A stretch of 64,000 bases of DNA from Acidobacteriota bacterium (GCA_035529075.1 DATKXK010000010.1:165401-229400); one strand, 5' to 3'; counted from the first letter of the stretch, positions 682 to 27,389 are shown. Notes: generated by a model not told the origin, from the letters alone. Made by a program: numbers and translations.

Positions 682-966
682 GTGACAAAGGCTGATCTTG
701 TCGAGAAAGTCGCCGAGAAGACCGGGCTGACGCGAACCGACGTTGCGGTTGTTGTCGATTCGTTCCTGGATACTGTGAAGAAATCGGTTGAGAGTGGGCA
801 CAACATTGAGATCCGCGGCTTCGGCACATTCAAAGTCAAGTTGCGCAAGGCAAGGATGGCTCGTAATCCGCGTACCGGAGAGGTAGTGCCGGTGCCGGAT
901 CGAAAAGTGCCCGTCTTCAAACCGTCGAATGAATTTAAGAGCATGATAACAAAGTTGTCGGTCTGA
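682..966 (+). CDS. HU/IHF-family nucleoid-associated DNA-binding protein
   Basis: 94 aa with a GTG start just after GAGGGAGGA. Carries the hallmark beta-arm RGFGTF..R.ARMARNPRTGE.V.VP....PVFKPS. Confidence 0.9.
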   Translation: MTKADLVEKVAEKTGLTRTDVAVVVDSFLDTVKKSVESGHNIEIRGFGTFKVKLRKARMARNPRTGEVVPVPDRKVPVFKPSNEFKSMITKLSV

Positions 967-1239: not shown

Positions 1240-1268
1240 GCCCACCGGGTGCGGTGGGCACTTTTGTT
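1240..1268 (+). terminator. Rho-independent terminator-like hairpin
   Basis: GCCCACCG-GGTG-CGGTGGGC (8-bp perfect GC-rich stem) followed by ACTTTTGTT. It overlaps the GTG start (1249) proposed by the ORF track. Confidence 0.55.
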
Positions 1269-1275
1269 GCATAGT

Positions 1276-4152
1276 ATGACTGCGGTGAAAACTGCGGTTT
1301 TACATATGCTCCTGCCGGGGGTGCTCCTTGCCGTCGCTGTCAGCATGCCGGTGCGAAGCGATGTGACTGATTTTCTGGTCAACGACGACGGCGGCTCGGC
1401 CCAGCAAAGCAGCCCGCGCATAGCGGTGGCCGGCGACGGCACCTTTGTCGTCGCATGGGCAGACAGGCGGGAAGGCAACAGCGACATATACTTGCAGCGC
1501 TATGACGCCTTCGGTAATCCCCTCGGCGGCAATTTCAGGATCAACGACGACAGCACCGGGGCACACCAGTCTGAACCGTCCATTGCGGTCGATCTGTCCG
1601 GATTGTTCTCACTTGTCTGGAAGGACTTTCGTCAGGGAGAGTATCCCTTTGGCCCGGACATCTACTTTCAGCGATTCGACACCGCCGTCTCCGTGATTGG
1701 CGAGAATCTGTGCTTGACAGCAGGATGGCCTGATTCTCTGAAGGAGTCTCCCGACATTGCTCTCGCCCACTGGGGCAGTGGTGTAGTGGTGTGGGCTGAC
1801 TACCGCGACCACAACTGGGATATCTACGGTCAGCGATTCTCTTCAGACGGCGGGCTGATCGGATCCAAGTTCAAAATCAATGACGACGTCAACTTCGCCC
1901 AGCAGCACGCCCCCCGAATCTCGGTGGCTCCGGAAGGGTGGTTTGTTGTCACGTGGTATGACAATCGCTGGGGAAACGATGACATCTTCGTACAGCACTT
2001 TGATTCGCTGGGAAGCGCGCTGGGCCCGAATGTCAGGGTGAACTCTGACGGGGCCGAGGTACGGCAGGCTTTCCCGGACGTAGCGGCCGACGGGGCCGGT
2101 CACTTTACGGTGGTGTGGGTCGACTGGCGCAACGGGACGTATCCGTCCAACCCCGACCTTTACGCTCGAAAGTATGACACGTCTATGGTGCCTCGTGCCG
2201 CCGAGGAGCGAGTCAACAGGGACGGCACCAGGAGGGCACAGCGGGAACCGACCATTGCTGCCGATCGCATGGGTAATGTCGCCATCATCTGGTCCGACTC
2301 GACCGGCAGTTCCTGGGACATCACGGGACAGATGATTGACGTCGAGGGAGTAATCCGTGAGACCAATTTTCAGGCCAACTCTTTCGGAGACAGTGCCCAG
2401 TTGCAGCCGGATGTGGCCCTGGACGGCCGGTATCGTTATGTCACGTGGGCTGACCGCCGGCAGGGTAACTGGGACGTCTTTGCCTCGATCACCCGGTACA
2501 ATGACCCGACGCTGGTGCCGGTACCTTCGGCGCTCAAGTTCGAGATGGAGCTGGGCGGACCGCTGCCCGAGGTCCAGGAACTGAGAATCGAGCATACCGG
2601 GTATAATGCCCTGCATTTCGTCGTGCACAGTTCGGTTCAGTGGTGTCTGGTCACGCCGGACTCCGGCCTGACCCCGGCCGGTGTCACGGTATCCGTTTCC
2701 GGCAGCTCTTTTGACTACGGCACCCATTTCGGCACACTCACGCTCGTGGACCTTCACAACCAGGATTCAACCTCGGTTGTGTCCGTTCGCCTTGACGTTA
2801 CCGTGGCCGAGTTGGCGCTTTCCACGGACACCGTCCGCCTCAGGGCTATGACCGGCCTGACCGACAGCGTTGTCGGCTATGTTGAGGTTTCGAATTCGGG
2901 AGCGGGATCGTTCACGTGGACGGCTGCCGAATCAGCCCCCTGGCTGTCGCTCTCGGACGCTTCCGGGGCGCCGCCAAGCACCGTCGAGCTGATCGCCACG
3001 GCAGCCAGTCTGGCAGAAGGGCTTTACGCGGAACCGGTGGTGTTCAGGGCGGAAGGAGCCCTTGGCTCTCCCGATACCGTGTGGGTTACGCTCGAGGTTA
3101 CAGCTGAACGGCCCTACCTGGCCGTTTCTCCGGAGAGCTTCTACGTTCAGACCGCGTATCCGGGCGCTGTAGCTGAAACGCTCGTGGTGGAAAACAAGGG
3201 CTCCGGCACGCTTAACTGGAACGCCACGGTGGCTGATTCGTGGCTTCAAGCCGATCGGTTGGCTGGCGGGTCAGGAGACACTATCCATCTCGCCGTCGAT
3301 ACCCTTGGCCTCACACCCGGGAGCCATGAGACGTCCATAGAGATCACGGATACTTCCTCCATCATAGTTTCGCTGACCGTTCCCTTCGTTCTGGAAGTGC
3401 TGGAGCTAAGCGAGACGGACACGCTCAGGCTGGGTTCGGCGCAAATGGAGACCGGCGGTTCGGCTGCAATTCCAGTGGAACTGCACCTGCTGAACCGGGC
3501 ACGTGAAATACAGGTGCCAATCATGCTTGATCCGGTGTTTGTTTCCATCCAGTCCGTAGAATTCGACCCCGTCATCGTCAGCCAGGCTTCGGTCGCCCAC
3601 CAGATAGACAGCAGCCTCGGCCTGGTGCTGCTTTCGATCACGGCCGTGTCTGTCGATGATTTCGTCGAGACCGGCGAGTATCAGCTCGCCCGCCTGCGAG
3701 TAACGGCGCGCGACCGACCAGGTGTCTTCCCGGTGGACACAGCGCGATTCGACTCGCTCTCGGTGTGCGTCGTGACCGACCGAGATGGCAGCGTAACGCC
3801 CGTCGTGATTCCCGGGCAGGTGACTGTTGACACACCTACCGAATTGCCGCCGGAGCTCCGGGATGAACTGCCGCGCGCGACCGCCCTGTCCCAGAACTTT
3901 CCCAACCCCTTCAATCTCTCGACCGGGATTGAATTCGAACTGCCCGCCACTGCCGAGGTCAGGCTCGAAGTGTACAACATACTCGGCCAGAAGGTCCGGG
4001 TGCTGGCCGGCGGGTTGTATAGCGTCGGCGGACATGTTGTCCAGTGGGACGGTATGTACGAAAACGGACAGGTAGCGCCGTCGGGGATATACTTCTACCG
4101 CCTGCGGTCCGGGCCGATTTCCCTGGTCAGGAAAATGGTGCTGGTCAAATAA
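1276..4152 (+). CDS. large secreted T9SS cargo protein: 7 propeller-like repeats, 3 BACON-like Ig modules, a cohesin-like module and a T9SS C-terminal sorting domain
   Basis: Track ORF 1249..4152. I prefer the ATG at 1276 (MTAVKTAVLHMLLPGVLLAVAVS signal peptide) because 1249 lies inside a terminator hairpin. The C-terminus FPNPFNLSTGIEFELP...VYNILGQKV...GIYFYRL is the type A T9SS sorting domain. Confidence 0.85.
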   Translation: MTAVKTAVLHMLLPGVLLAVAVSMPVRSDVTDFLVNDDGGSAQQSSPRIAVAGDGTFVVAWADRREGNSDIYLQRYDAFGNPLGGNFRINDDSTGAHQSEPSIAVDLSGLFSLVWKDFRQGEYPFGPDIYFQRFDTAVSVIGENLCLTAGWPDSLKESPDIALAHWGSGVVVWADYRDHNWDIYGQRFSSDGGLIGSKFKINDDVNFAQQHAPRISVAPEGWFVVTWYDNRWGNDDIFVQHFDSLGSALGPNVRVNSDGAEVRQAFPDVAADGAGHFTVVWVDWRNGTYPSNPDLYARKYDTSMVPRAAEERVNRDGTRRAQREPTIAADRMGNVAIIWSDSTGSSWDITGQMIDVEGVIRETNFQANSFGDSAQLQPDVALDGRYRYVTWADRRQGNWDVFASITRYNDPTLVPVPSALKFEMELGGPLPEVQELRIEHTGYNALHFVVHSSVQWCLVTPDSGLTPAGVTVSVSGSSFDYGTHFGTLTLVDLHNQDSTSVVSVRLDVTVAELALSTDTVRLRAMTGLTDSVVGYVEVSNSGAGSFTWTAAESAPWLSLSDASGAPPSTVELIATAASLAEGLYAEPVVFRAEGALGSPDTVWVTLEVTAERPYLAVSPESFYVQTAYPGAVAETLVVENKGSGTLNWNATVADSWLQADRLAGGSGDTIHLAVDTLGLTPGSHETSIEITDTSSIIVSLTVPFVLEVLELSETDTLRLGSAQMETGGSAAIPVELHLLNRAREIQVPIMLDPVFVSIQSVEFDPVIVSQASVAHQIDSSLGLVLLSITAVSVDDFVETGEYQLARLRVTARDRPGVFPVDTARFDSLSVCVVTDRDGSVTPVVIPGQVTVDTPTELPPELRDELPRATALSQNFPNPFNLSTGIEFELPATAEVRLEVYNILGQKVRVLAGGLYSVGGHVVQWDGMYENGQVAPSGIYFYRLRSGPISLVRKMVLVK

Positions 4153-4275: not shown

Positions 4276-5532
4276 ATGAGAGTAACTGCATTCCTTATGA
4301 CCGCCGCAGCCGCCATACTGTTGTCCGCGATGGCTCTTGCGGCTGACAACAGCGGACGTATTTACGGGGAGATTACCACCGTCGACGGCGACGTTCTCAA
4401 AGGGCTCATACGCTGGGACAAGAACGAAGGTTCGTGGGTCGATCTGCTCAACGGATCGAAGGATCTGCGGGACGACCGTGATCGGGATCGCTCGCTATCC
4501 AAGCGAAAGAGGTACAGCGATCGCAGGAGGTCGATTGAACTTTTCGGGATCAAGATCATCGACGACGACGGGCTCGTGCACGTGATGACGGGTGTGGCCC
4601 AGTCCGGAATTCGATTCGGACACATCAAGACCATGAAGATCCTTGACGATGACATGGTGCGGCTGGATTTGAAATCCGGTCGCGAAGCTGAACTGTTCGA
4701 TGGCTCCACGGACATCGGGACGAGCATTCGGGAGATCGTGATCGAGGATGAGAGCGAAGGTGAACTGGAGCTTGCGTGGGATGATATCGAACGCATCGAT
4801 TTCATGGCGGCCGGAACCTCCGAGCCGTCCAGCTTCGGAGATCGCCTCTACGGGACGGTTACCACGCGCCGCGGCGAGGATTACAGCGGCTTCATTTGCT
4901 GGGACGTTGACGAGATATTCACCGGCGATGTTCTCGACGGTGTTGAGAACAGCCGCAAACGTAAGATACGGTTCGACAAGATCGCCTCGATAGAACGGTA
5001 CAGTTCCAAGGGTGCGACCGTCGTGACCAGGACGGGAGACGAGTACGTGCTCCGAGGCACCAATGACGTCAACAGCAGCAACCGGGGTATTGGGGTCTCG
5101 GATCCGGGTCTCGGTCAGGTAACGGTCGGCTGGGATGAGTTTGAACGGGTCGTCTTCAGTGACCCCCCATCCATGGTGCGATACGATGATTTCGACGGCG
5201 GACGTCCGCTGCAGGGAACGGTCTTTACGGAGGACGGCAACCAGTACACCGGGACGATCTGCTGGGATGACGACGAGGAGTATACGTGGGAGATTCTTGA
5301 CGGTGAATACCGCGACCTCGAGTTCGACGTCGAGTTCGGTCTGATCAAGCAGATCGAGAAGAAATCCTACCGGGCGGCCATCGTGACCGTGTGGGACGGC
5401 CGCAGTTTCCAGTTGCGGGGGTCGAACGACGTGGACGAGGACAACAAGGGCATAATCGTGGTCATGGACGACGGTGAGGAAGCGATCATCGACTGGGAGG
5501 AATTCACGCGGGTCGAGTTTGTGAAGCCCTGA
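4276..5532 (+). CDS. secreted hypothetical protein with three ~115-150-aa internal repeats
   Basis: Track ORF 4255..5532. ATG at 4276 follows GGAGG. Signal peptide MRVTAFLMTAAAAILLSAMALA. Repeat starts are GRIYGEITTVDGDVLKGLIRWD, DRLYGTVTTRRGEDYSGFICWD and RPLQGTVFTEDGNQYTGTICWD. Confidence 0.8.
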   Translation: MRVTAFLMTAAAAILLSAMALAADNSGRIYGEITTVDGDVLKGLIRWDKNEGSWVDLLNGSKDLRDDRDRDRSLSKRKRYSDRRRSIELFGIKIIDDDGLVHVMTGVAQSGIRFGHIKTMKILDDDMVRLDLKSGREAELFDGSTDIGTSIREIVIEDESEGELELAWDDIERIDFMAAGTSEPSSFGDRLYGTVTTRRGEDYSGFICWDVDEIFTGDVLDGVENSRKRKIRFDKIASIERYSSKGATVVTRTGDEYVLRGTNDVNSSNRGIGVSDPGLGQVTVGWDEFERVVFSDPPSMVRYDDFDGGRPLQGTVFTEDGNQYTGTICWDDDEEYTWEILDGEYRDLEFDVEFGLIKQIEKKSYRAAIVTVWDGRSFQLRGSNDVDEDNKGIIVVMDDGEEAIIDWEEFTRVEFVKP

Positions 5533-8448: not shown

Positions 8449-8659
8449 CAGTTTTTTGGAGGCGTGGTCACGCTATCCGGCCGCGCCGGCCGGCAGTCGA
8501 CCCCGGCTAAGTCGATTCTAATGAACATAACCTGTTGACAACGCGTCTGCGGATTGATTATCTTTGCAGCCTGTTTTGGCTGGTCGGCCGATTGGCCCTG
8601 CATCTGTCTAGTACCGGTTGGGAGAAAGGTCATCTGTACAATATCGCGAGGAAGCGGAG

Positions 8660-9334
8660 ATGAAGAAGCTTGTACTGGTTTTGCCGTTGGTCTTTATGCT
8701 TGCAGTGAACACTTCCGTTCTGGGTCAGGTGGAAGAAGAGGAAGAACGGGACGTCCTTGAAGTCGTCGGCTTTTTCGGGGCCGCCATCCCGACGGCCGGT
8801 GTTGCAGAGTGGATGAGCCCGGGCGGCCCGGAGATCGGAGCCAAACCGGGCATCGGTTTCGGCGGGGGAATCGGATATTTCGTCACCGGCAATCTGGTGC
8901 TTGGGGTTAACTTTACCTATTCTCAGCACAGCCTGGACACTCAGGCCGGAACAGGCAATCTGGAGCACCGCTTCTACAATCCCAGCCTGTATCTCAAGCG
9001 CTATTTCTACGGCGAATCGGACCTGGTTCCCTACGTGAAAGTGCACGTCGGACTGGATAATCCAAAGTTTACAACCTGGGTCTGGGATGAGGCCCTTCAG
9101 CAATTCAAGTTCCGGGAACTGTCCTATGATCCGGCGCTGGCATTTGGCGCCGGGGTCGGCCTGTTCTACTATACCTCTGACTACAGCGGACTGCTTTTGG
9201 AGGCAAACCTTCATTACGGCTTGAGCGAGGATGCCGAAGGGACTTTCCAGGATCGGACGTACAGATTCGGCGAGAGCAATGTCATGATCGACGTGCATGC
9301 CGGTGTGAAAGTGTTCTTCGGCTCCGGCGAGTGA
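8660..9334 (+). CDS. outer-membrane beta-barrel protein (OmpA-beta/porin-like), function unknown
   Basis: Track ORF 8618..9334. ATG at 8660 gives the signal peptide MKKLVLVLPLVFMLAVNTSVLG. The remainder has an alternating amphipathic beta-strand pattern rich in aromatic/Gly residues. Confidence 0.7.
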   Translation: MKKLVLVLPLVFMLAVNTSVLGQVEEEEERDVLEVVGFFGAAIPTAGVAEWMSPGGPEIGAKPGIGFGGGIGYFVTGNLVLGVNFTYSQHSLDTQAGTGNLEHRFYNPSLYLKRYFYGESDLVPYVKVHVGLDNPKFTTWVWDEALQQFKFRELSYDPALAFGAGVGLFYYTSDYSGLLLEANLHYGLSEDAEGTFQDRTYRFGESNVMIDVHAGVKVFFGSGE

Positions 9335-9358
9335 TACCAGGCAATCATGGAACCCCCG

Positions 9359-9386
9359 GGCCCGCTTCTGCAAGCGGGCCTTTTTT
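9359..9386 (+). terminator. Rho-independent terminator
   Basis: GGCCCGCTT-CTGC-AAGCGGGCC followed by TTTTTT. Confidence 0.75.
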
Positions 9387-9426
9387 GTCGTTGCGAGCCG
9401 GGTGAAGACACCGTAGCTTTTGCAGC

Positions 9427-10776
9427 ATGAAACGCCCGAAACTGCTGATTGTTGATGACGAACCTAAGCAACGGGAACTGTTATCCGGTTATCTGGGAAA
9501 TGAAGGTTTCCGGGTCACTGAAGCTGAGAGCGGAGAGAGAGCGCTTGAAATCTACCACACGGTGTTTGCTCCGCTGGCTCTCGTGGACATGAAGATGCCT
9601 GGAATCGACGGTGTGGAACTGTTGATTCGCCTGAAAGAGATCAACCCGTTTATCCAGGTGATAGTCCTGACCGCCTTCGGGTCCGTGGAATCAGCGGTTC
9701 GTGCCATGAAGGCGGGGGCCTTTGATTATTTGACCAAGCCGGTCGAAGACCTGGACGAATTGCTGTTAAAACTGGAGAAAGCCGCCGCCCAGAACCGCCT
9801 CGTTGTCGACAACCAGGCAATGGCCGAGCGCCTGGCCGAGATTTTCCCCAGCGCCGAGATCATCGGCGAATCGCCCGCCATCACCCGGGTCAAGGAACTC
9901 ATCTCGCTGGTCGGCCCCAGGGATGCCACGATACTGATCACCGGACCGTCAGGAACGGGCAAGGAGCTGGTGGTGCGAGCCATCCATTCGCTCTCGCCTC
10001 GTTCGCAGAATCGCCTGGTGGCGATAAACTGCGCGGCTTTCCCGGAGACGCTGCTTGAGGCCGAGTTGTTCGGTTATGAGCGCGGCGCCTTCACCGGCGC
10101 CGATCGGGCCAAGCAGGGACGGTTCGAACTTGCCGACGGCGGGACGCTGTTCCTTGACGAGATCGGCGAAATGCCGCCGGCGATGCAGGCTAAACTGCTG
10201 CGGGTCCTCGAAGAACGGTCCATTCAGCGTCTGGGCTCGGTTCGGGATATCCCCATTGACATCAGGATACTGGCCGCCACCAACCGGGAGTTGGAGCAGT
10301 TGATCGAGCGCGGGAAGTTCAGGGAGGATCTGTACTACCGCTTGAATGTCATCCGCGTGCACCTGCCTCCGCTCTCGGAAAGATCAGGTGATATCCTGCT
10401 GTTGGCCGAGCGGTTCATCAAGAAGTACGCGCGCAAGATCGGCAAAGAGGTCAAGGGACTGGACAGCGAAGCGGCCTCGGCACTGGCGGCGTATCACTGG
10501 CCCGGCAACGTTCGGGAACTGGAAAACGTCATCGAGCGCGCCATCGTCCTGACCCGGAACGAGTATCTCACGAAACAAGATCTCCCCGGGCTGACGGCGG
10601 GCGGGGCTATGGTTGCCGAAGCCGTCGTGCGGACCCTCTCCGAGGTCGAAAAAGAGCATATCAAAGCCTGCCTTGACAGTCTCGGCTGGAACATCGGCCT
10701 CTCGGCCGAGAAGCTCGGCATACACCGCAATACCCTGCGGGTGAAGATAAAGGAATACGGGCTGGCAAAGGATTGA
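9427..10776 (+). CDS. sigma-54-dependent response regulator (NtrC/AtoC family bEBP)
   Basis: REC domain ([11 protein letters not shown]). AAA+ domain with Walker A GPSGTGKE and an intact sigma-54 contact loop GAFTGA. C-terminal Fis-type HTH ([17 protein letters not shown]). Confidence 0.9.
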
Positions 10777-10815
10777 GTCCGGGTCGCCCTGTTCCTGTGC
10801 CGCCTTCTTTGCATC

Positions 10816-10832
10816 TGCACAGAAAATGTGCA
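10816..10832. promoter_or_regulatory. perfect inverted repeat TGCACA-N5-TGTGCA, candidate enhancer (UAS) for the adjacent bEBP
   Basis: Read directly from the sequence. It lies in a cluster of TGCA tetramers 66-82 nt upstream of the sigma-54-like promoter. Confidence 0.35.
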
Positions 10833-10897
10833 CGAAAACCTCCCCGAAATACACCCCGCCAGCGCTATCCTGCTTTACAATAACGCGTTACGGAAAT

Positions 10898-10913
10898 TGG
10901 CACGATTCTTGAT
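10898..10913 (+). promoter_or_regulatory. sigma-54 (-24/-12) promoter candidate
   Basis: TGGCACG-ATTC-TTGAT versus the consensus TGGCACG-N4-TTGCW. The only mismatch is C(-12) to A. It ends 44 nt before the ATG at 10957. Confidence 0.5.
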
Positions 10914-10956
10914 ACTCTCCTGACTGGAGACTTTAAAGCAGACACTGGAGTGAAAC

Positions 10957-11856
10957 ATGAAAAAGATAATAGTCTTGGTCCTGATCCCGCTTATCGCCCT
11001 TGTGACAGGCGGTTGTGATAACGACGATGAAATTGTCTACGTGTCCGACCCGCCGCCGCAGTCGCCTCAGGGCGTGTTCTCGGTCACCGGTGACGGGCAG
11101 GTCACGATCGGGTGGCTCGGTCTGTGGGAGGATGACATTGTAGAATACGTGGTCGGGTGGAACGACGCCCTGCTTGGGGAATACGAGGAAGTCGGCCGCG
11201 TCCCTGCCGATCCGCGCGATACCGAGACGAACCTGTACTGGTTCGTGGATACCGACGTGGACAACGGGACGACGTACTTTTACTCGGTCTGGGCCGTCGA
11301 TGAAGCGGGCCAGGTTTCCCGTCCGTCATATGAGGCCGTCTTTGATACTCCCCGGCCGCAGGGCCAGGTGGAGTTGTACTCGCGGTTTGCCAGCCCCGTT
11401 CAAGCCGGCTTTGACCTGAGTCAATCTGCCGTCGTGCCCTGGGATGCCACTACGGCCGATGTCTTCATCGATCACATAGAGATAGCGGACGGGGATAGCA
11501 CGTTGGTGGTGCTCTACCTGAACACGGCTAACCCGGCTACGGACATTCAGGACAAGGGATATACCGATGACTTTGACGATGTAGACTGGGCGCCGGTGGA
11601 AGGCTGGTCGGACTTGCAGTACTACGAAGTAATCCCCGGCCACACGTACGTCATCTGGACGGCTGACTACCATTATGCCAAGATGCGGGTCAGCTATGTG
11701 AGCCGCGACACCCGGCTGGTGGCATTTGAATGGGCGTACCAGGTTGCGGATACGACCAACGAGTTGGGCAATCGCGAATTGATGCCCCCGCCGCCCGAGT
11801 CGGAGGTTGACCCCGAACACGTTACGGCCGAGCAGGTCGACCGGACGTCACGCTAA
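10957..11856 (+). CDS. lipoprotein with a fibronectin type III-like domain
   Basis: The signal MKKIIVLVLIPLIALVTGGC ends in Cys. The FN3-like stretch is PQGVFSVTGDGQVTIGW...VEYVV......Y..VG........Y.F.DTDV.NGTTYFYSVWAVDEAGQVS. Confidence 0.75.
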   Translation: MKKIIVLVLIPLIALVTGGCDNDDEIVYVSDPPPQSPQGVFSVTGDGQVTIGWLGLWEDDIVEYVVGWNDALLGEYEEVGRVPADPRDTETNLYWFVDTDVDNGTTYFYSVWAVDEAGQVSRPSYEAVFDTPRPQGQVELYSRFASPVQAGFDLSQSAVVPWDATTADVFIDHIEIADGDSTLVVLYLNTANPATDIQDKGYTDDFDDVDWAPVEGWSDLQYYEVIPGHTYVIWTADYHYAKMRVSYVSRDTRLVAFEWAYQVADTTNELGNRELMPPPPESEVDPEHVTAEQVDRTSR

Positions 11857-11888
11857 AGAGCATGAGACGCGAAAGGATTGGTGATGCC

Positions 11889-13493
11889 ATGTTACGTAAT
11901 ACCAAAAAGACGGCGCTGGCGGCCCTGCTGGCGGCAATCGTCAGTGTGACGACGGCGGCGGCCCAGCCGGCGGAGCAGGAGTACGGCGACTATGAGCGCG
12001 TGGCGCGAGTAGACCGGTACCTGGATGCCGAGGTCTGGACCAATCACTACGACGGTGAGTACTACGAAGGTGACAACATTGTCATCCATTTTCGCGTGAG
12101 CCGGGATGCGTTCGTCGTCATCTACTCCATTGATACTCGCGGTCGGGTGAATCTCCTGTTTCCCGCAGATCCGACTCAGGACAACTTTGTCTATGGCGGA
12201 ATAACGAACAGTCTGCCGGGTGAAGACGACGGGTACGACCTGATGGTCAACGGCCCCGAAGGCCTCGAGCACTTGCAGATTATCGCCTCTCGCGAACGTT
12301 TTTCGGTGCCGAACTGGTACCACAATTCGGGCCTGGTTTTCACGGGCGATGACCGGTACGACTACATGGACTACCTGAACGACCAGTACTTCGTTCGCTA
12401 CGACGGCCAGCGGTTTGCCTATGATCGTGCCGTGATTTTCGTTGATGAATGGGAGCCGTACTACTACCGGCCGGTTTACTATCCCGGGTATCCGGCCTGG
12501 TCCGTTTGCGGTAACGCCTACATCGACTACCCCTGGGGCGCCACGGTATACGTCAATGGATACTACTGGGGTGTCGCGCCGCTGTATATCCCGCGCCTGG
12601 TGGTCGGCTGGCACACCGTGACGATCTACGACCACTACGGTTACTGCTGGGAAAGCGACTTCCACGTCAGCCGGTACAACACCGTAGTCTTCAGCCGGAC
12701 GGTGGTCAAGACGAGCGCCACGGTGACTTCCAAGTACGCCGCCGTAAGGAAGGTCGGATACCGGGATCCCGTGATGCACGGCTACCCGAACTTCTCGGCC
12801 AAACCGGCCGGCAAGAACGTTACGAAGCTGCAGGCCGGCAGCGTTACCGGGACAAAGACGCTCAAAGAGTCCGGGGCGTTCAACGACTACGTGCTGGACA
12901 AGAAGTACGTGCGTGGTTCGACCAAGCTCGTCAAGACGAAGCGCGGCTATGAAACCGACGTAGCCGGTTCAGGTTACACGGGCAAGGCCAAGAGCGTGGA
13001 GTCGTCCAAGTCAGAAGCCGCCGGAGAGCGCCGAGTGACCTCGTATTCAGAAAAGACGACTGACCGCGGCACGTCCGGCAAGTCCACGATTGGTGCGAAA
13101 GATTACTCCCCTGACAAGAGCGTGTCGGGCGAATCTTCGGGCTACTACGAGAAAAAGAGCGGGACCTCCGGAAAGGTCCGCTCGGGCTCCGGGAAGGCAC
13201 AAAGCGACCCGAAGGTGCGGGTCGGCTCCAAGTCAGGTGCCGCTACGTCGAAGCCCAAAGGCGACGCCGGTAAAACACCAAGCGTGAAAAGCTCTAAGGA
13301 AGAGAAGTCAGCCGATAAACCGTCCGGGAGCGTCAAGAGTCGTACGACGTCAAAACCATCCGGCGGTAAGTCCGGCGGCTCGGTCGGGTCTGGCAGCACA
13401 TCTTCGAGCGGAAGCAGCTCCTCGGGCAAAACGGGCAAATCCAGCGGCGGGTCCTCAGGCAAGAAGTCCGGCTCGGGCGGCAAGGGGAAGTAA
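11889..13493 (+). CDS. secreted protein with a DUF4384-like region, a PEGA-like region and a ~240-aa Ser/Gly/Lys-rich tail
   Basis: Track ORF 11862..13493. The ATG at 11889 gives MLRNTKKTALAALLAAIVSVTTAAA. GLEHLQIIASRERF resembles DUF4384. VYVNGYYWGVAPLYIPRLVVGWHTVTIY resembles a PEGA domain. The C-terminus is low complexity (SGKS repeats). Confidence 0.75.
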   Translation: MLRNTKKTALAALLAAIVSVTTAAAQPAEQEYGDYERVARVDRYLDAEVWTNHYDGEYYEGDNIVIHFRVSRDAFVVIYSIDTRGRVNLLFPADPTQDNFVYGGITNSLPGEDDGYDLMVNGPEGLEHLQIIASRERFSVPNWYHNSGLVFTGDDRYDYMDYLNDQYFVRYDGQRFAYDRAVIFVDEWEPYYYRPVYYPGYPAWSVCGNAYIDYPWGATVYVNGYYWGVAPLYIPRLVVGWHTVTIYDHYGYCWESDFHVSRYNTVVFSRTVVKTSATVTSKYAAVRKVGYRDPVMHGYPNFSAKPAGKNVTKLQAGSVTGTKTLKESGAFNDYVLDKKYVRGSTKLVKTKRGYETDVAGSGYTGKAKSVESSKSEAAGERRVTSYSEKTTDRGTSGKSTIGAKDYSPDKSVSGESSGYYEKKSGTSGKVRSGSGKAQSDPKVRVGSKSGAATSKPKGDAGKTPSVKSSKEEKSADKPSGSVKSRTTSKPSGGKSGGSVGSGSTSSSGSSSSGKTGKSSGGSSGKKSGSGGKGK

Positions 13494-13556: not shown

Positions 13557-13904
13557 ATGAAACGTTTACTGACATATCTGTTGTGTGCCGCCTTTCTGTT
13601 CTCTCTGAGCGGCGTAGCATCGGCGGTTGAGAAAAAGAAGAAAGAGGACACGCCTAAAGCTAAGGTGCAAAAGCGCGATACATCTTCGAAGACTGTCACC
13701 AAAACGACAGCGAAGAAAACAATCCTGGTGCCGAAGCGGCCGGCTGCAACTAAGAAGAAGTACGATAACTTCGTCGACCGTAATAAGAACGGTGTCGATG
13801 ACCGCCGGGAAAACCTGAAACAAAAGGTGCAAAAAAAGCCCGCCGCCGAGGTTCAGAAGAAGCCGAGCAAGGACTCCGGCTCCAAGAAAGAGCCGAAAAA
13901 GTAA
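13557..13904 (+). CDS. small secreted lysine-rich protein
   Basis: Clean signal peptide MKRLLTYLLCAAFLFSLSGVASA. The mature part is about 30% Lys. It has an EF-hand-like loop, DRNKNGVDDRRE, which fails the canonical hydrophobic position 8. A terminator follows on the same strand. Confidence 0.6.
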   Translation: MKRLLTYLLCAAFLFSLSGVASAVEKKKKEDTPKAKVQKRDTSSKTVTKTTAKKTILVPKRPAATKKKYDNFVDRNKNGVDDRRENLKQKVQKKPAAEVQKKPSKDSGSKKEPKK

Positions 13905-13930: not shown

Positions 13931-13958
13931 AAGCCGCCACCGTCAGGTGGCGGCTTTT
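13931..13958 (+). terminator. Rho-independent terminator
   Basis: AAGCCGCCACC-GTCA-GGTGGCGGCTT followed by TTCGTCTT. Confidence 0.7.
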
Positions 13959-13993: not shown

Positions 13994-14022
13994 TTGACTA
14001 TCGTTAGAGAATGTGTTAATTA
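13994..14022 (+). promoter_or_regulatory. sigma-70-type promoter candidate for the hrcA operon
   Basis: TTGACT-N17-TAATTA, about 60 nt upstream of the hrcA start. Confidence 0.4.
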
Positions 14023-14049
14023 GCAATGGGTGTCAGGGTGGACTGCCAA
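14020..14049 (+). promoter_or_regulatory. degenerate CIRCE-like element (candidate HrcA operator)
   Basis: TTAGCAATG-N12-GACTGCCAA versus TTAGCACTC-N9-GAGTGCTAA. Each half matches 7/9, but the spacer is 12 rather than 9 and the arms complement each other poorly. Confidence 0.25.
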
Positions 14050-14080
14050 AATGGCAGTTGCTCGATAAGCGCAGAGGAGC

Positions 14081-21526: not shown

Positions 21527-23371
21527 ATGGCCAGACCGCGAAACAAGTTCGAAGCCGAAGTACATCTCGGTTTTCTCGTCATCGTCAGTCTGCTGTTGCT
21601 GCTGAACTTCGTCTCCAATTTCGTCGTGTACAGGGCACGTTCGGCGGACCAGACGGGACTGTCCGGGCATCTTCGGCAGACTTCCCTGGCGATCAGCCGC
21701 GCGGTTCAGCAGAAGCTGCCGCAGCCGCTGTCGGACGCCGAAGTGCGTGACCTTGCGGTCCGGCACGACCTGAGCGATTTGATCGTGATTCCCTCGCAGC
21801 CGGCCGAAGATACGCGCGATGCCAGGCGGCAGTGGTTTGCCACCATGGCCCACAACTTCCCGCCCGGGGAACTCCCCCGGATGGCCGAGAAACTCGTGCG
21901 GGCGGAATACCAGCAGTTGACGCGAGGCGACGGCGACGAGTACTTCTACGTCTATCCGATGCCGGTGAAAGCCGGGCGAAGTCTGCTGGTGCTTACGGTC
22001 GAGCGTGCCAACCTTGCGTATCTTGACGATTCCAGAAAGGTGCTCACTTTCATCCTGCCGTGGTCAGTGGTCATTGTTCTGGTTACCTATCTCATCCTTT
22101 CGCGGTTCATCTTCAGCCCGTTTCGCAAGCTCAAGGAACAGGCCACTCGGGCCGGTCGCCGAGTCGAAGAGGGGGGTAACGAGGCCGAGGCGCTGGTCGA
22201 CGAGTACAGGCAGGTTATAGAGCGCCTCAGGCAGAAGGAGGCCGAGCTTCTCAAGCTCAACGCCTCAATCCAGAGCCGCGTGGACTCACTCGAGCAGTTC
22301 AACCGGTACCTCCTGTCCTCCAGCGATTCCGGCATTGTCACGATGGACGAGCAGGGTCTTGTGCTGTCGCTCAACGACGCCGCGCGGCGGATTCTGCAAC
22401 TTGACGACGAACGCGACATCGGCACGCGCTGCGAGGAACTGATTGCCAGCTATCCCGAGCTCGGCCGACGGGTGTTTCGGGCGCTAAGGGGCGGCGACTA
22501 CGAGGGCTACCGGGAACTTTCCCTCAAGCGCCGGGACGCCGACGATCTGGTCGTCGGGGTCACCATATCGCCCATTAAAGATTACGACGAACAGACAGTG
22601 GGCGTATCCGTGCTGCTGAACGACCTGACCGAGCTGGCCCGCCTTCGCCGTGAACTCGAACAGAAAAACCGGCTGGTCGCGCTGGGCGAGATGGCCGGGG
22701 GGCTGGCGCACCAGTTGCGCAACGCCCTTGGCACAATCGCCGGTTACGGGCGGCTGGTGTGTCGGCGGCTGGTCAACTGCGGTCAGCCCACGGACAACAT
22801 CGACGCCCTGCTTCAGGAGACGACTGAGGCGGAAACCCTGATCGGGCGCTTTCTCAATTTCGCGCGACCGCTGTATTTCATCCCCTCGCCCGTCGACGTG
22901 CGTTCCCTGATCGAAGAAACGGTCGGATCTTTTCGCGTGCGCGAAGAATCCCGGTCGGCCGAATTCTCAATTTCGTTTGAGGGCAACCAGACGGTTCAGG
23001 GCGACGCCGCCCTGCTGAGGCAGGCACTGGTCAACATCCTGGACAACGCCGTCCTGGCCTACCCCGAGGGCCGGGGGACGGTGGCAATCTCATCGGTCGA
23101 GGTCGGTGGCGGCGTACGGATAGAAATAAAGGATTTCGGTACGGGAATCGCAGAGACCGAGCTGGACAGCATCTTTACTCCGTTTTTCTCCAATCGTCCT
23201 TCGGGCACCGGGCTGGGGCTGTCCCTGGCGCGGAAAATTCTCGATCTGCACGGCGGGCGAGTCACGGTCACCTCCAGAGTCGGGCAGGGAAGTGTCTTTA
23301 CGTTGTTCCTGCCCTGCCGGCCGTGCGCGAAGTCAGTGCCGGCGGATCAGGCGCCTGCCGGGTCAGTGTAG
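21527..23371 (+). CDS. membrane sensor histidine kinase (NtrB/PilS-like HisKA plus HATPase_c)
   Basis: Two TM segments flank a periplasmic region, followed by a PAS-like segment. H-box LAHQLRNALGTI. N/G boxes NILDNAV..., DFGTGI and GTGLGLS. Confidence 0.85.
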   Translation: MARPRNKFEAEVHLGFLVIVSLLLLLNFVSNFVVYRARSADQTGLSGHLRQTSLAISRAVQQKLPQPLSDAEVRDLAVRHDLSDLIVIPSQPAEDTRDARRQWFATMAHNFPPGELPRMAEKLVRAEYQQLTRGDGDEYFYVYPMPVKAGRSLLVLTVERANLAYLDDSRKVLTFILPWSVVIVLVTYLILSRFIFSPFRKLKEQATRAGRRVEEGGNEAEALVDEYRQVIERLRQKEAELLKLNASIQSRVDSLEQFNRYLLSSSDSGIVTMDEQGLVLSLNDAARRILQLDDERDIGTRCEELIASYPELGRRVFRALRGGDYEGYRELSLKRRDADDLVVGVTISPIKDYDEQTVGVSVLLNDLTELARLRRELEQKNRLVALGEMAGGLAHQLRNALGTIAGYGRLVCRRLVNCGQPTDNIDALLQETTEAETLIGRFLNFARPLYFIPSPVDVRSLIEETVGSFRVREESRSAEFSISFEGNQTVQGDAALLRQALVNILDNAVLAYPEGRGTVAISSVEVGGGVRIEIKDFGTGIAETELDSIFTPFFSNRPSGTGLGLSLARKILDLHGGRVTVTSRVGQGSVFTLFLPCRPCAKSVPADQAPAGSV

Positions 23372-25046: not shown

Positions 25047-25337
25047 GATTTCCTCCCTCCGCCGACGTGACGGCAGTCAGTTGAACTTATCCCTCTGGTA
25101 CTGCGAAACACCGCAATCCGGATGCCGGACCGGGAGAGTCCGACGAACCCGTTGATTTACAACGGGTTACGCAACCCGGAAGGCCGTGCTCCGGAGCGAA
25201 CGACGGGAAATGGATAGGCCTGCGTCCGCAGTCAGTGGGCGGAGGGCTATCGATGCCGGCTAACCTCGGTCCGGTAAGTGCCGATAACTGTAGTGATTAC
25301 AGTAGAATCCACCGTATCTCGGCGCGAGGGAGGTGCC

Positions 25338-27389
25338 ATGACTCCAGAGATTGCCGATTGGCTTGTCTCGCTGTTCTTTCTGCTTGCGCTCCTGCTGGTT
25401 CTGAGGTTCAAGAAACAGGTCGGAGTCGAAAGCAGGCGAAGTTATAACCAGATTGCCGTCGGGCTGGCGATCCTGGCCCTGGTAGCAGTCTCCCGCGTGC
25501 ACAGCAACGCCGGCCTGTTCAACTCGGTTCCGTTTCTATCCGAGCCGGTCTTCTATGAACTGGTCATCTGGATTGCCGCCATCTTCGGGGCCGCCATGCT
25601 GGTAGGCGGAGTATCTCACTGGCTGCCGGCCATTCGTGCATACCGCAGGTACAACGAAACGAAAGTACATCACCTGGAGTTTCTCAAACGTCTGGAACAA
25701 CTGGTCAGCGTGGAAGGTCGCCTGGACACGGTACTCGCTACGACCGTGGATTACATGATGGAACATTTCGGCTTTAAAGACGGCGCCGCGGTAAAGCTCT
25801 CCCGCGGCGGGACGCTTCACCTCACTGCCAAGAGCCGGAATCTCGGGCTTGACCGGGGACGCATGTACCGTCTGTCATTCAGCAAGACCGGCTGGCAGAA
25901 GTACCTCGACGGCACACCGGCGCAATCGGCCGGTATCATCACCGGCCTGGCGGACTTGGGTGGGCATCCGCAGGTGGTCCTGCCGGTTTCCGTGGCCAAT
26001 CGTCCGGTGGCGTTCTTCCTCCTCTGGCGTTCGCGAGACACGAACTGTGATCATGACGACGAACTGAACCTGCGAATAGCGGGCGACATCATTGCCCGGA
26101 AGATACAGCTGGATCAGGTCAAGCTTCACCGACAGTGGCTGCGCGGTCGTGATCGGCAGCGGCTGAATCTGGAGCGGGCCTTCGACAGCGCGCCGGATCT
26201 GAAATCACAAATGACCGCCCTGGCCAACGGCGTCACGGACCTGTCGACGGCCGACGTCCTGTCGCTGCTGCTCGTCGATGAACGTCAGCCGAAGGCGACA
26301 CGGGTTACCGTGGGCGACAGTGGCACCGTGCTGGTCGAGCATCTTGACGAACGACCTGGTCCGAACACGCTTGCGGGCCGGCTGCTTGACTCGGACAGGG
26401 TCCGGATCATCGAGGATATTGGTCAGGCAGGTGACGTCACCGTTGATGAATTCCTCCGCGTGCATAACTTGAAATCGCTCGTGGCCCTACCGCACCGAGT
26501 TTCCGGCACGCGGGCCCTGTTTGTCGCCGGCTCACGACGATTACGCCAGTTTGATGACTCCACGGCCGCAGCCGTCGAGACCATTCGCCCCTTCCTGGCC
26601 CGAATCCTGCTGGGTTACCAGGCGCAGGCAGTCGCAGCGGCCTATCAACGCCGGGCTGCCCGGCTGAACGGGCTTACCACCCACGTGACCGCCTCGGCCG
26701 GAGTGAAACCGGCGTGCGATTATGCCGCCCGCCTGCTGGCCGACGAACTCGATCTCGACTTCGTGCGCATCTCACTGTTAGACGGGGAAGCAGCCTTTCT
26801 TGAATCGCGCGCCCTGGTTGTGCGCGGATTTACGACGGGCATGGTGCCGGAGAACGGTACGATGGTGCTATCACTGATGCCCCAGCACGAAAGAGTGATC
26901 CAGCGCGGTGAGGTCGTCCTGATTCAGAGCGGACGGGAGCCTGCCGCCCTGTCGGAAATAGAGGCTTCTCAGGTATTCGCGCCCGTGCTCGGCCCGGTTT
27001 GCCTGATGCCGATTACCGGCGCCGGCCGGGTCGTGGGCGTCCTGAGCCTGGCAGCCGCCGGCGCGGCGGCACGCAGCGGATTCGAAGCTGAAGAAATGCA
27101 GTTTGTCGCTTCCGTTGCGGAACTGCTCGCCCTTGCCGCTCGCCTCTCGGTTCGCACGCCGGATCTGCGGCCCGGGGTTATGCCGGCGGGACCGGAGCCG
27201 GTCGGCGAACAGATGGAGACAGCGCTGAAAAGCCGTGTCAGATCTCCTCTGACGGGTATTCTGGGCTCGGTGGAAATGCTCAGGTCCCGGCCGCAGGCGG
27301 ATCAGGAGCAGGTAAACCGCTACCTGTCGATAATCGACCGCTCGGCTCGCAGGATCAGCGCATACCTGCATGAGGAGGCCGGAAGCTGA
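25338..27389 (+). CDS. membrane protein with tandem GAF-like domains and a C-terminal DHp-like helix pair lacking the phospho-accepting His and any ATPase domain
   Basis: Track ORF 25278..27389. The ATG at 25338 follows GAGGGAGG. About three N-terminal TM helices. The C-terminus KSRVRSPLTGILGSVEMLRS...YLSIIDRSARRIS aligns with the HisKA H-box (SHELRTPL) with Ser in place of His. The ORF stops 53 aa later. Confidence 0.75.
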   Translation: MTPEIADWLVSLFFLLALLLVLRFKKQVGVESRRSYNQIAVGLAILALVAVSRVHSNAGLFNSVPFLSEPVFYELVIWIAAIFGAAMLVGGVSHWLPAIRAYRRYNETKVHHLEFLKRLEQLVSVEGRLDTVLATTVDYMMEHFGFKDGAAVKLSRGGTLHLTAKSRNLGLDRGRMYRLSFSKTGWQKYLDGTPAQSAGIITGLADLGGHPQVVLPVSVANRPVAFFLLWRSRDTNCDHDDELNLRIAGDIIARKIQLDQVKLHRQWLRGRDRQRLNLERAFDSAPDLKSQMTALANGVTDLSTADVLSLLLVDERQPKATRVTVGDSGTVLVEHLDERPGPNTLAGRLLDSDRVRIIEDIGQAGDVTVDEFLRVHNLKSLVALPHRVSGTRALFVAGSRRLRQFDDSTAAAVETIRPFLARILLGYQAQAVAAAYQRRAARLNGLTTHVTASAGVKPACDYAARLLADELDLDFVRISLLDGEAAFLESRALVVRGFTTGMVPENGTMVLSLMPQHERVIQRGEVVLIQSGREPAALSEIEASQVFAPVLGPVCLMPITGAGRVVGVLSLAAAGAAARSGFEAEEMQFVASVAELLALAARLSVRTPDLRPGVMPAGPEPVGEQMETALKSRVRSPLTGILGSVEMLRSRPQADQEQVNRYLSIIDRSARRISAYLHEEAGS

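Follow-up and report, generated by a model that had tools for sequence, protein, structure and literature searches.

A proposed sigma-54-dependent control region between an orphan NtrC-family response regulator and a conserved operon of secreted proteins

One of the closest described relatives of the control region analysed here is the enteric NtrC-glnAp2 system, in which a response-regulator activator (bEBP) of the REC-AAA+-Fis-type helix-turn-helix architecture acts on a -24/-12 promoter from a pair of dyads located roughly 100-140 bp upstream of it and separated by about three helical turns. The sites of NtrC follow the consensus TGCACCA-N3-TGGTGCA, the corresponding protein helix reads GRNTLTRKLKE, and glnAp2 is not known to need IHF. 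Weak sigma-54 promoters rely on IHF for looping and polymerase recruitment, and in systems of the XylR/IHF-Pu type a bending-protein site lies between the enhancer and the promoter. The core consensus of IHF is CAA-N4-TTR, and the canonical IHF site (WATCAANNNNTTR) is asymmetric. Three-domain regulators are also found in ZraR-zraP, AtoC and the NtrC1 and NtrC4 proteins of Aquifex, and ZraR drives a small secreted envelope protein. In the psp systems of E. coli and Salmonella, the activator PspF has no receiver domain, is controlled by the binding of PspA and targets cell-envelope proteins; the reference titles in PMC5095919 indicate that PspF and IHF bind cooperatively between enhancer and promoter. 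Dyad enhancers are typically located some 70-150 bp upstream of their promoters (PMC3844500), and the GC/TGC element at -12, normally conserved, sets the place of the fork junction by which the closed complex is kept silent (PMC3844500; PMC5095919).

The DNA analysed here is a stretch of 64,000 nucleotides (the window), in which the interval 10786-10926 is proposed to be the control region of a sigma-54-dependent operon. Its architecture is that of a standard enhancer-dependent promoter, comparable to glnAp2, psp and Pu, with no new mechanism. The reading developed below, a sigma-54 promoter activated from the upstream sites by the adjacent bEBP, is regarded as very probable. The features on which it is built are the following:

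682-966, plus strand: gene for a protein of the HU/IHF family, 94 aa
Upstream of the OMP gene, minus strand: purD and purE
8618-9334, plus strand: OMP beta-barrel gene
9358-9381, plus strand: rho-independent terminator of the OMP gene, 10-bp stem and T6 tail
9391-9396 and 9414-9419, plus strand: putative sigma-70-like promoter of the bEBP gene, -35 TTGCGA and -10 TAGCTT, read from the sequence
9427-10776, plus strand: bEBP gene (REC, Sigma54_activat and HTH_8 by Pfam), stop codon 10774-10776
10786-10800: UAS2, distal weaker site GCCCTGTTCCTGTGC, centred 31 bp upstream of the UAS1 centre
10816-10832: UAS1, perfect palindrome TGCACA-GAAAA-TGTGCA, centre 10824, about -100 from the predicted start
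10866-10890: A/T-rich palindrome TAA-N4-TTG-N5-CAA-N4-TTA between the UAS and the promoter, proposed DNA-bending site
10898-10913, plus strand: putative sigma-54 -24/-12 promoter TGGCACG-ATTC-TTGAT
10922-10926, plus strand: predicted transcription start, +1 near 10924
10957-11856, plus strand: gene A, ATG at 10957, preceded by GGAG at 10946-10949
11889-13493, plus strand: gene B (DUF4384 and PEGA), alternative start 11862
13557-13904, plus strand: gene C
13931-13956, plus strand: rho-independent terminator of the A-B-C operon, 11-bp stem with 8 GC pairs, T-rich tail
3' of the operon terminator: hrcA-grpE-dnaK-dnaJ

The open reading frames given in a preliminary description of this DNA (9427-10776, 10957-11856, 11862-13493 and 13557-13904) were all found in the window, and so was the terminator said to close the operon, with its stem at 13931-13956 followed by a T-rich tail. 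A search with a 15-sequence alignment of gene A retrieved 80 orthologous loci, one per GTDB species, from Zixibacteria and from MAGs labelled Ignavibacteriales; counts out of 81 sequences include the window. Relatives of gene A are encoded by 586 stretches in species-representative genomes, and 105 homologues are present in the protein database, mostly from Zixibacteria and other MAGs of the FCB group. As judged by tblastn, the order purD (minus strand) / OMP-bEBP-A-B-C-hrcA is kept in most loci. The stop codon of the bEBP lies less than 600 nt from the start codon of gene A in 58 of the 81 sequences (mostly 138-250 nt), and most of the remaining ones have the bEBP within about 5 kb upstream of the operon. 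To our knowledge, Zixibacteria is a phylum without any cultured representative, and a literature search recovered no paper joining Zixibacteria with sigma-54. The present comparison would provide a well-supported cis-regulatory map and a first regulon for this phylum.

The -24/-12 element TGGCACG-ATTC-TTGAT was recovered at 10898-10913, where it had been described, ending 43 nt before the ATG of gene A. Taken within the window alone, its significance is weak: TGGCACG-N4-TTGCW with at most one mismatch was found once versus 0.53 expected, and 43 of 100 shuffled windows contained at least one such match. The comparison of loci gives a very different picture. All but one of the 81 sequences have a single element of the form GGCAY-N6-TTG before gene A, in which GG, CA, TTG and their spacing do not vary. 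The looser NGG[CT]A[CT]-N5-NTGN, looked for within 110 nt upstream of the start codon of gene A, likewise gives exactly one match in 80 of 81 sequences, with a chance expectation that we estimate at about 0.02 per locus. The exception is L036, with one extra base in the spacer. The motif ends 28-61 nt before the start codon in the orthologues, always on the coding strand, and the position, spacing and orientation of the element are kept upstream of the orthologous operon. When the 80 loci are aligned on the motif, G, G, A, T and G are invariant and the flanking columns are information-poor. A position weight matrix built from the 79 orthologous sites, with the window left out, ranked 10898 first in a scan of the window (20.7 bits versus 15.3 for the next site), and no other window site scored near it. 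As far as conservation between genomes can tell, the comparative evidence for both the promoter and the upstream palindrome is overwhelming.

The start of transcription by sigma-54 usually lies 12 nt downstream of the -12 position. A purine-rich block, yRGAA, is conserved at the predicted positions +2 to +6 (alignment columns +27 to +31), which places the putative +1 near 10924. The operon is predicted to depend on sigma-54 (RpoN). A signature-motif search of the window and of about 880 kb of related loci detected no RpoN box, so that rpoN is presumed to be present in this lineage only on the grounds of the promoter motif and of a bEBP with a conserved GAFTGA.

Further sigma-54-like matches amounted to 21 in 879 kb versus about 13 expected. 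One match with two mismatches in the window (GGGCACTTTTGTTGCA, 1256-1271) overlaps the annotated start of 1249-4152 (plus strand), which encodes a protein of about 965 aa with FlgD_ig and BACON_2 hits and a C-terminal tail that by eye looks like a T9SS sorting domain; this match is probably due to chance or to a mis-called start. In L078, an extra sigma-54-like sequence, TGGCACGGTGGTTGCC (5151-5166, plus strand), is found just after the bEBP gene and before an extra small lipoprotein gene, which is inserted before gene A; gene A keeps its own promoter in this locus.

Upstream of the promoter, the perfect palindrome TGCACA-GAAAA-TGTGCA (UAS1) was also confirmed at 10816-10832. It is unique in the 64-kb window, where looser matches occur at chance level. 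In 832 kb of sequence, GCACA-N5-TGTGC with at most one mismatch has 90 matches, 82 of which lie within 140 nt upstream of a -24 element, and the conserved form of the site is (T)GCACAA-N3-TTGTGC(R). Its centre is 73 or 74 bp upstream of the T at -24 in 54 loci (74 bp in the window) and 63 or 64 bp in 5 others, two classes that differ by one helical turn. The divergent loci L059, L060, L065, L072 and L076 have no palindrome at a fixed distance. Across orthologous loci the palindrome is conserved both in its sequence and in its phased distance to the promoter, and in loci where the bEBP and gene A have been moved apart by 0.5-4.9 kb of unrelated genes, the palindromes are found with the promoter. 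The description of a single NtrC-type palindrome is refined by a second site at 10786-10800 (UAS2). Sites with up to three mismatches centred 30-32 bp upstream of UAS1 are present in 42 of 71 loci versus 1-2 of 71 in control windows, and their right half, TGTGC, is the better conserved one. The spacing of UAS1 and UAS2 to the promoter falls in the range typical of NtrC-type enhancers, and the pair of dyads, about three helical turns apart and roughly 100-140 bp upstream of the promoter, reproduces the arrangement of glnAp2, with half-sites (GCACA/TGTGC) that differ by about one base from the NtrC consensus.

The natural candidate to bind these sites is the product of the gene directly upstream, which had been described as a response regulator with a GAFTGA motif. 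Pfam assigns to it REC, Sigma54_activat and HTH_8 domains, and the domain order is that of NtrC, ZraR, AtoC and Aquifex NtrC1 and NtrC4; in the PDB, it is closest to Aquifex NtrC4 (4l4u, 1e-111) and NtrC1 (1ny5, 1e-105). D11, D54, K104, the Walker A motif GxSGTGKE, the Walker B residues DE and the 15-letter recognition helix are kept in all 63 full-length orthologues, which show only conservative substitutions at D10, at T82 and in GAFTGA. This residue conservation identifies the bEBP as an intact response regulator of the NtrC family, whose helix HRNTLRxKIKE resembles that of NtrC. The best NCBIfam hits of the bEBP are AtoC, ZraR and NtrC, of which it is not an equivalog, with all three scores below their cut-offs (AtoC, 442 bits versus 714; ZraR, 426 versus 760; NtrC model TIGR01818, 416 versus 558.6).

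With the terminator at 9358-9381, the bEBP gene is set apart from the OMP gene as a separate transcription unit, and a hairpin with a T-run is found at the same position after the OMP gene in about 55 orthologous loci, with differing stem sequences. The sigma-70-like hexamers that follow recur as TTGC and TAnnnT separated by 17-19 nt upstream of the bEBP in orthologous loci, and would constitute a probably constitutive promoter. With only 7 nt between the end of the -10 element and the ATG, and no Shine-Dalgarno sequence, the bEBP mRNA is probably leaderless.

As the preliminary description remarked, no kinase gene is adjacent to the bEBP, the nearest ones in the window starting at 21527 and 25278, and none was adjacent in any locus inspected. 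The genes inserted between bEBP and gene A in some loci were considered as a source of a partner and discarded, since they are unrelated and resemble, by eye, a membrane pump and a transposase. Two histidine kinases are encoded 10-14 kb downstream of the operon: a PAS-HisKA-HATPase_c protein (21527-23371, plus strand), preceded by genes for dnaJ, a PrmA-like methyltransferase, an RNA methyltransferase and a Peptidase_A24 prepilin peptidase, and a GAF-HisKA protein (25278-27389, plus strand). Either of them could be the partner of the bEBP. The absence of an ntrB-like kinase gene and of nitrogen genes, the secreted nature of the targets and the TTGAT at -12 set this locus apart from NtrC-glnAp2, whereas the differences from ZraR and AtoC are found in the lack of an adjacent ZraS- or AtoS-like kinase, in the DNA site and in the targets. 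With respect to PspF, the difference is the presence of a REC domain.

We infer from the conservation of both partners that UAS1 and UAS2 are bound by this adjacent bEBP. An explanation that we consider improbable, and that nevertheless survives better than the other alternatives, accepts the sigma-54 promoter but leaves the palindromes to a different bEBP or to a repressor, the adjacent bEBP having other targets. In its favour, GCACA-N5-TGTGC is still present in about ten loci without an adjacent bEBP (L051, L066, L074, L075 and others), and helix-turn-helix sequences are alike across bEBP paralogues. Against it, 58 of 81 sequences have the bEBP gene directly upstream and most of the others have it within 5 kb, and the near-invariant recognition helix of the bEBP is paralleled by the near-invariant TGTGC half-site. 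Moreover, GKSAxVL replaces GL[STC]AEKL in the first helix of the HTH in the clade whose left half-site has degenerated to GAACA or GACCA, a covariation confounded by phylogeny, and the signature-motif search of the window and of the related loci (about 880 kb) detected no second GAFTGA protein.

A second promoter architecture of gene A was observed in L051, L066, L074, L075, L059, L060, L065, L072 and L076, with a canonical TTGC and no IHF-like palindrome. In the first four of these loci GCACA-N5-TGTGC is found farther upstream, there is no adjacent bEBP and purD abuts the operon.

A further question is the base at -12, where the window has A instead of the consensus C, as already pointed out in the preliminary description. 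Among the 80 loci this position is occupied by A in 34, by T in 31 and by C in 15, so that about 80% of them (65 of 80, with TTGAT or TTGTW) depart from the consensus. In the sequences compared, the missing C is the rule in the clade and not an oddity of the window. A compensation between T at -15 and C at -12 was also considered and set aside, the trend being weak and phylogenetically confounded. Among the intergenic promoters bound by sigma-54 in Salmonella, STM0649.S (TGGCACGCCTTTTGATTA) has TTGAT, pspA has ...TTGTATT, pspG has ...TTGTAAG, and hydN is listed with ...GTGTATA (PMC3844500). Such promoters without C at -12 give the variant a functional precedent and place it within the known range, and those of pspA and pspG (TGGCACGCAAATTGTATT and TGGCATGATTTTTGTAAG; PMC3844500) resemble the present locus in this respect. 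In all, the footprint of 80 species can be regarded as a natural mutagenesis experiment in which change is tolerated at the C of -12, but not in GG, in TTG or in the helical phase of the enhancer.

The loss of this C leaves room for another explanation, in which TTGAT/TTGTW and its A/T-rich flank would be part of a promoter of the sigma-70 family, and GGCAC an operator or a sequence conserved for some other reason. Indeed, TTGATA and TTTAAA, 17 nt apart in the window, could pass for a weak -35/-10 pair. In the other loci, however, no conserved -10-like hexamer follows 16-19 nt downstream of TTG, and what is conserved downstream is yRGAA, placed where a sigma-54 start would be expected. Recognition by sigma-70 would also leave unexplained the fixed -24/-12 register of the GG and TG dinucleotides, with one exception in 81 sequences, and the -24/-12 element is accompanied by enhancer sites and by an intact GAFTGA bEBP. 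We therefore consider this explanation very unlikely, and keep the sigma-54 promoter.

The idea that the palindrome at 10816-10832 acts as an RNA hairpin, either a terminator or a 3'-UTR stabiliser of the bEBP transcript, takes support from its location 40 nt after the stop codon and its possible 6-bp stem and is hardly credible, as no T-run follows, its distance is fixed and helically phased to the promoter, with which it moves, rather than to the bEBP stop, and the sequence conservation of the arms with non-compensatory changes (for example, GAACA...TGTGC), an intergenic RNA fold no better than shuffles (z = -0.72) and the lack of any Rfam match in the intergenic region point to DNA sites.

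Between these DNA sites and the promoter, the alignment revealed a third conserved element, with TAA at columns -32 to -30, TTG at -25 to -23, CAR at -17 to -15 and TTA at -10 to -8, forming a dyad centred at -20. Of the 80 loci, 61 match the palindrome at 9 or more of its 12 positions, versus about 0.2 of 80 in shuffled sequences; the copy of the window is weak, with 8 of the 12 specified positions. Each half of the palindrome has the spacing of the IHF core, and IHF-core-like CAAnnnnTTR is present on both strands. Set against the canonical IHF site (WATCAANNNNTTR), the loci keep a core CAR-N4-TTA on each strand, arranged as a palindrome of which the window has the weak copy just mentioned. 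The A/T-rich palindrome would then be a bending site, perhaps for a homodimer. Its position between enhancer and promoter is the one found in systems of the XylR/IHF-Pu type, from which it differs as a symmetric double core abutting the -24 element instead of an asymmetric site, and its presence is also a difference with respect to glnAp2. A candidate for a homodimeric IHF is the product of 682-966, which scores higher with the models of IHF-alpha and IHF-beta (96 and 93 bits) than with those of HU (60 and 56 bits), all of them below the cut-offs.

The IHF-like palindrome is present in 64 of the 65 loci without C at -12, and absent from 10 of the 15 loci with the canonical C. This co-occurrence fits a promoter with a weak -12 element that would rely on a bending protein, and it is confounded by phylogeny, because the loci containing C are mostly divergent and without an adjacent bEBP. 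The near-invariant geometry, the tolerated loss of C at -12 and the symmetric IHF-like element add a modest interest to an otherwise standard promoter.

The most likely pathway of activation would start with the synthesis of the bEBP from its own promoter, probably constitutive and giving a probably leaderless mRNA. An unlinked histidine kinase would phosphorylate the bEBP at D54; both this kinase and its signal are inferred parts of the scheme. The phosphorylated bEBP would bind through its Fis-type helix-turn-helix to the two dyads, three helical turns apart and centred at about -100 (UAS1) and -131 (UAS2) from the start site, and would assemble as an AAA+ ring. An IHF-like protein would bend the DNA at 10866-10890, bringing the ring to the promoter, where the GAFTGA loops and ATP hydrolysis would open the closed complex of the sigma-54 holoenzyme at 10898-10913. 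Finally, transcription would begin at about 10924, cover genes A, B and C and end at the terminator at 13931-13956.

Regarding the target genes, the preliminary description of gene A as an FN3 lipoprotein is supported by the AlphaFold model (pLDDT 87), which shows an N-terminal FN3 domain, matched by FN3 domains in the PDB, and a second beta-sandwich domain; the lipobox Cys is invariant, as part of an invariant G19-C20, and no Pfam match was obtained for gene A. In gene B, Pfam agrees with the DUF4384 and PEGA domains that had been proposed. Gene callers and the alignment of homologues make a start at 11889 more likely than one at 11862. Its product has a signal peptide and a disordered tail of about 200 aa rich in Ser, Gly and Lys, and the only matches of the mediocre model (pLDDT 67) are generic folds of the Ig-like, S-layer and macroglobulin kinds. 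No functional data on DUF4384 were found in the literature search. Gene C, already described as Lys-rich, encodes a small secreted protein with 24% Lys. A loop of the form D-x-N-x-N-G-[IV]-D-D-R-x-E (nt 13776-13811, aa 74-85) is kept in 58 of 62 tblastn matches of gene C. This loop resembles a Ca2+-binding loop, with the hydrophobic residue one position off that of the canonical EF-hand.

Sigma-54 regulons are enriched for functions of the cell exterior, lipoproteins included (PMC3162934). Our guess that the A-B-C operon serves the cell exterior agrees with this theme, and cell-envelope proteins are also the targets of the psp systems, the proteins themselves being unrelated. The comparison would connect three conserved secreted proteins with an orphan response regulator as their activator, a link that is open to testing. 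A bolder and rather doubtful extension is that the products of genes A, B and C and of the syntenic OMP gene form an undescribed surface structure found throughout the phylum, under a weak TTGW promoter that needs a homodimeric IHF-like protein at the double-core site. The parts would be the FN3 lipoprotein, the Ig-like DUF4384/PEGA protein with its basic tail and the Lys-rich protein with its Ca-loop-like motif, and one possibility is that they build a Ca2+-dependent polycationic matrix or adhesion layer. If this were true, the promoter would represent a variant form of enhancer-dependent transcription specific to the lineage.

A last observation concerns the hrcA gene that follows the operon. 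The canonical CIRCE (TTAGCACTC-N9-GAGTGCTAA) is absent upstream of hrcA, and the region 14020-14060 of the window contains the palindrome ACTGCCAAAATGGCAGT at 14044-14060. Most loci carry a palindrome CTGCCA-N3/4-TGGCAG upstream of hrcA, many of them with a preceding TTAGCACTC half-site, and this palindrome may be a lineage-specific variant of the HrcA operator.
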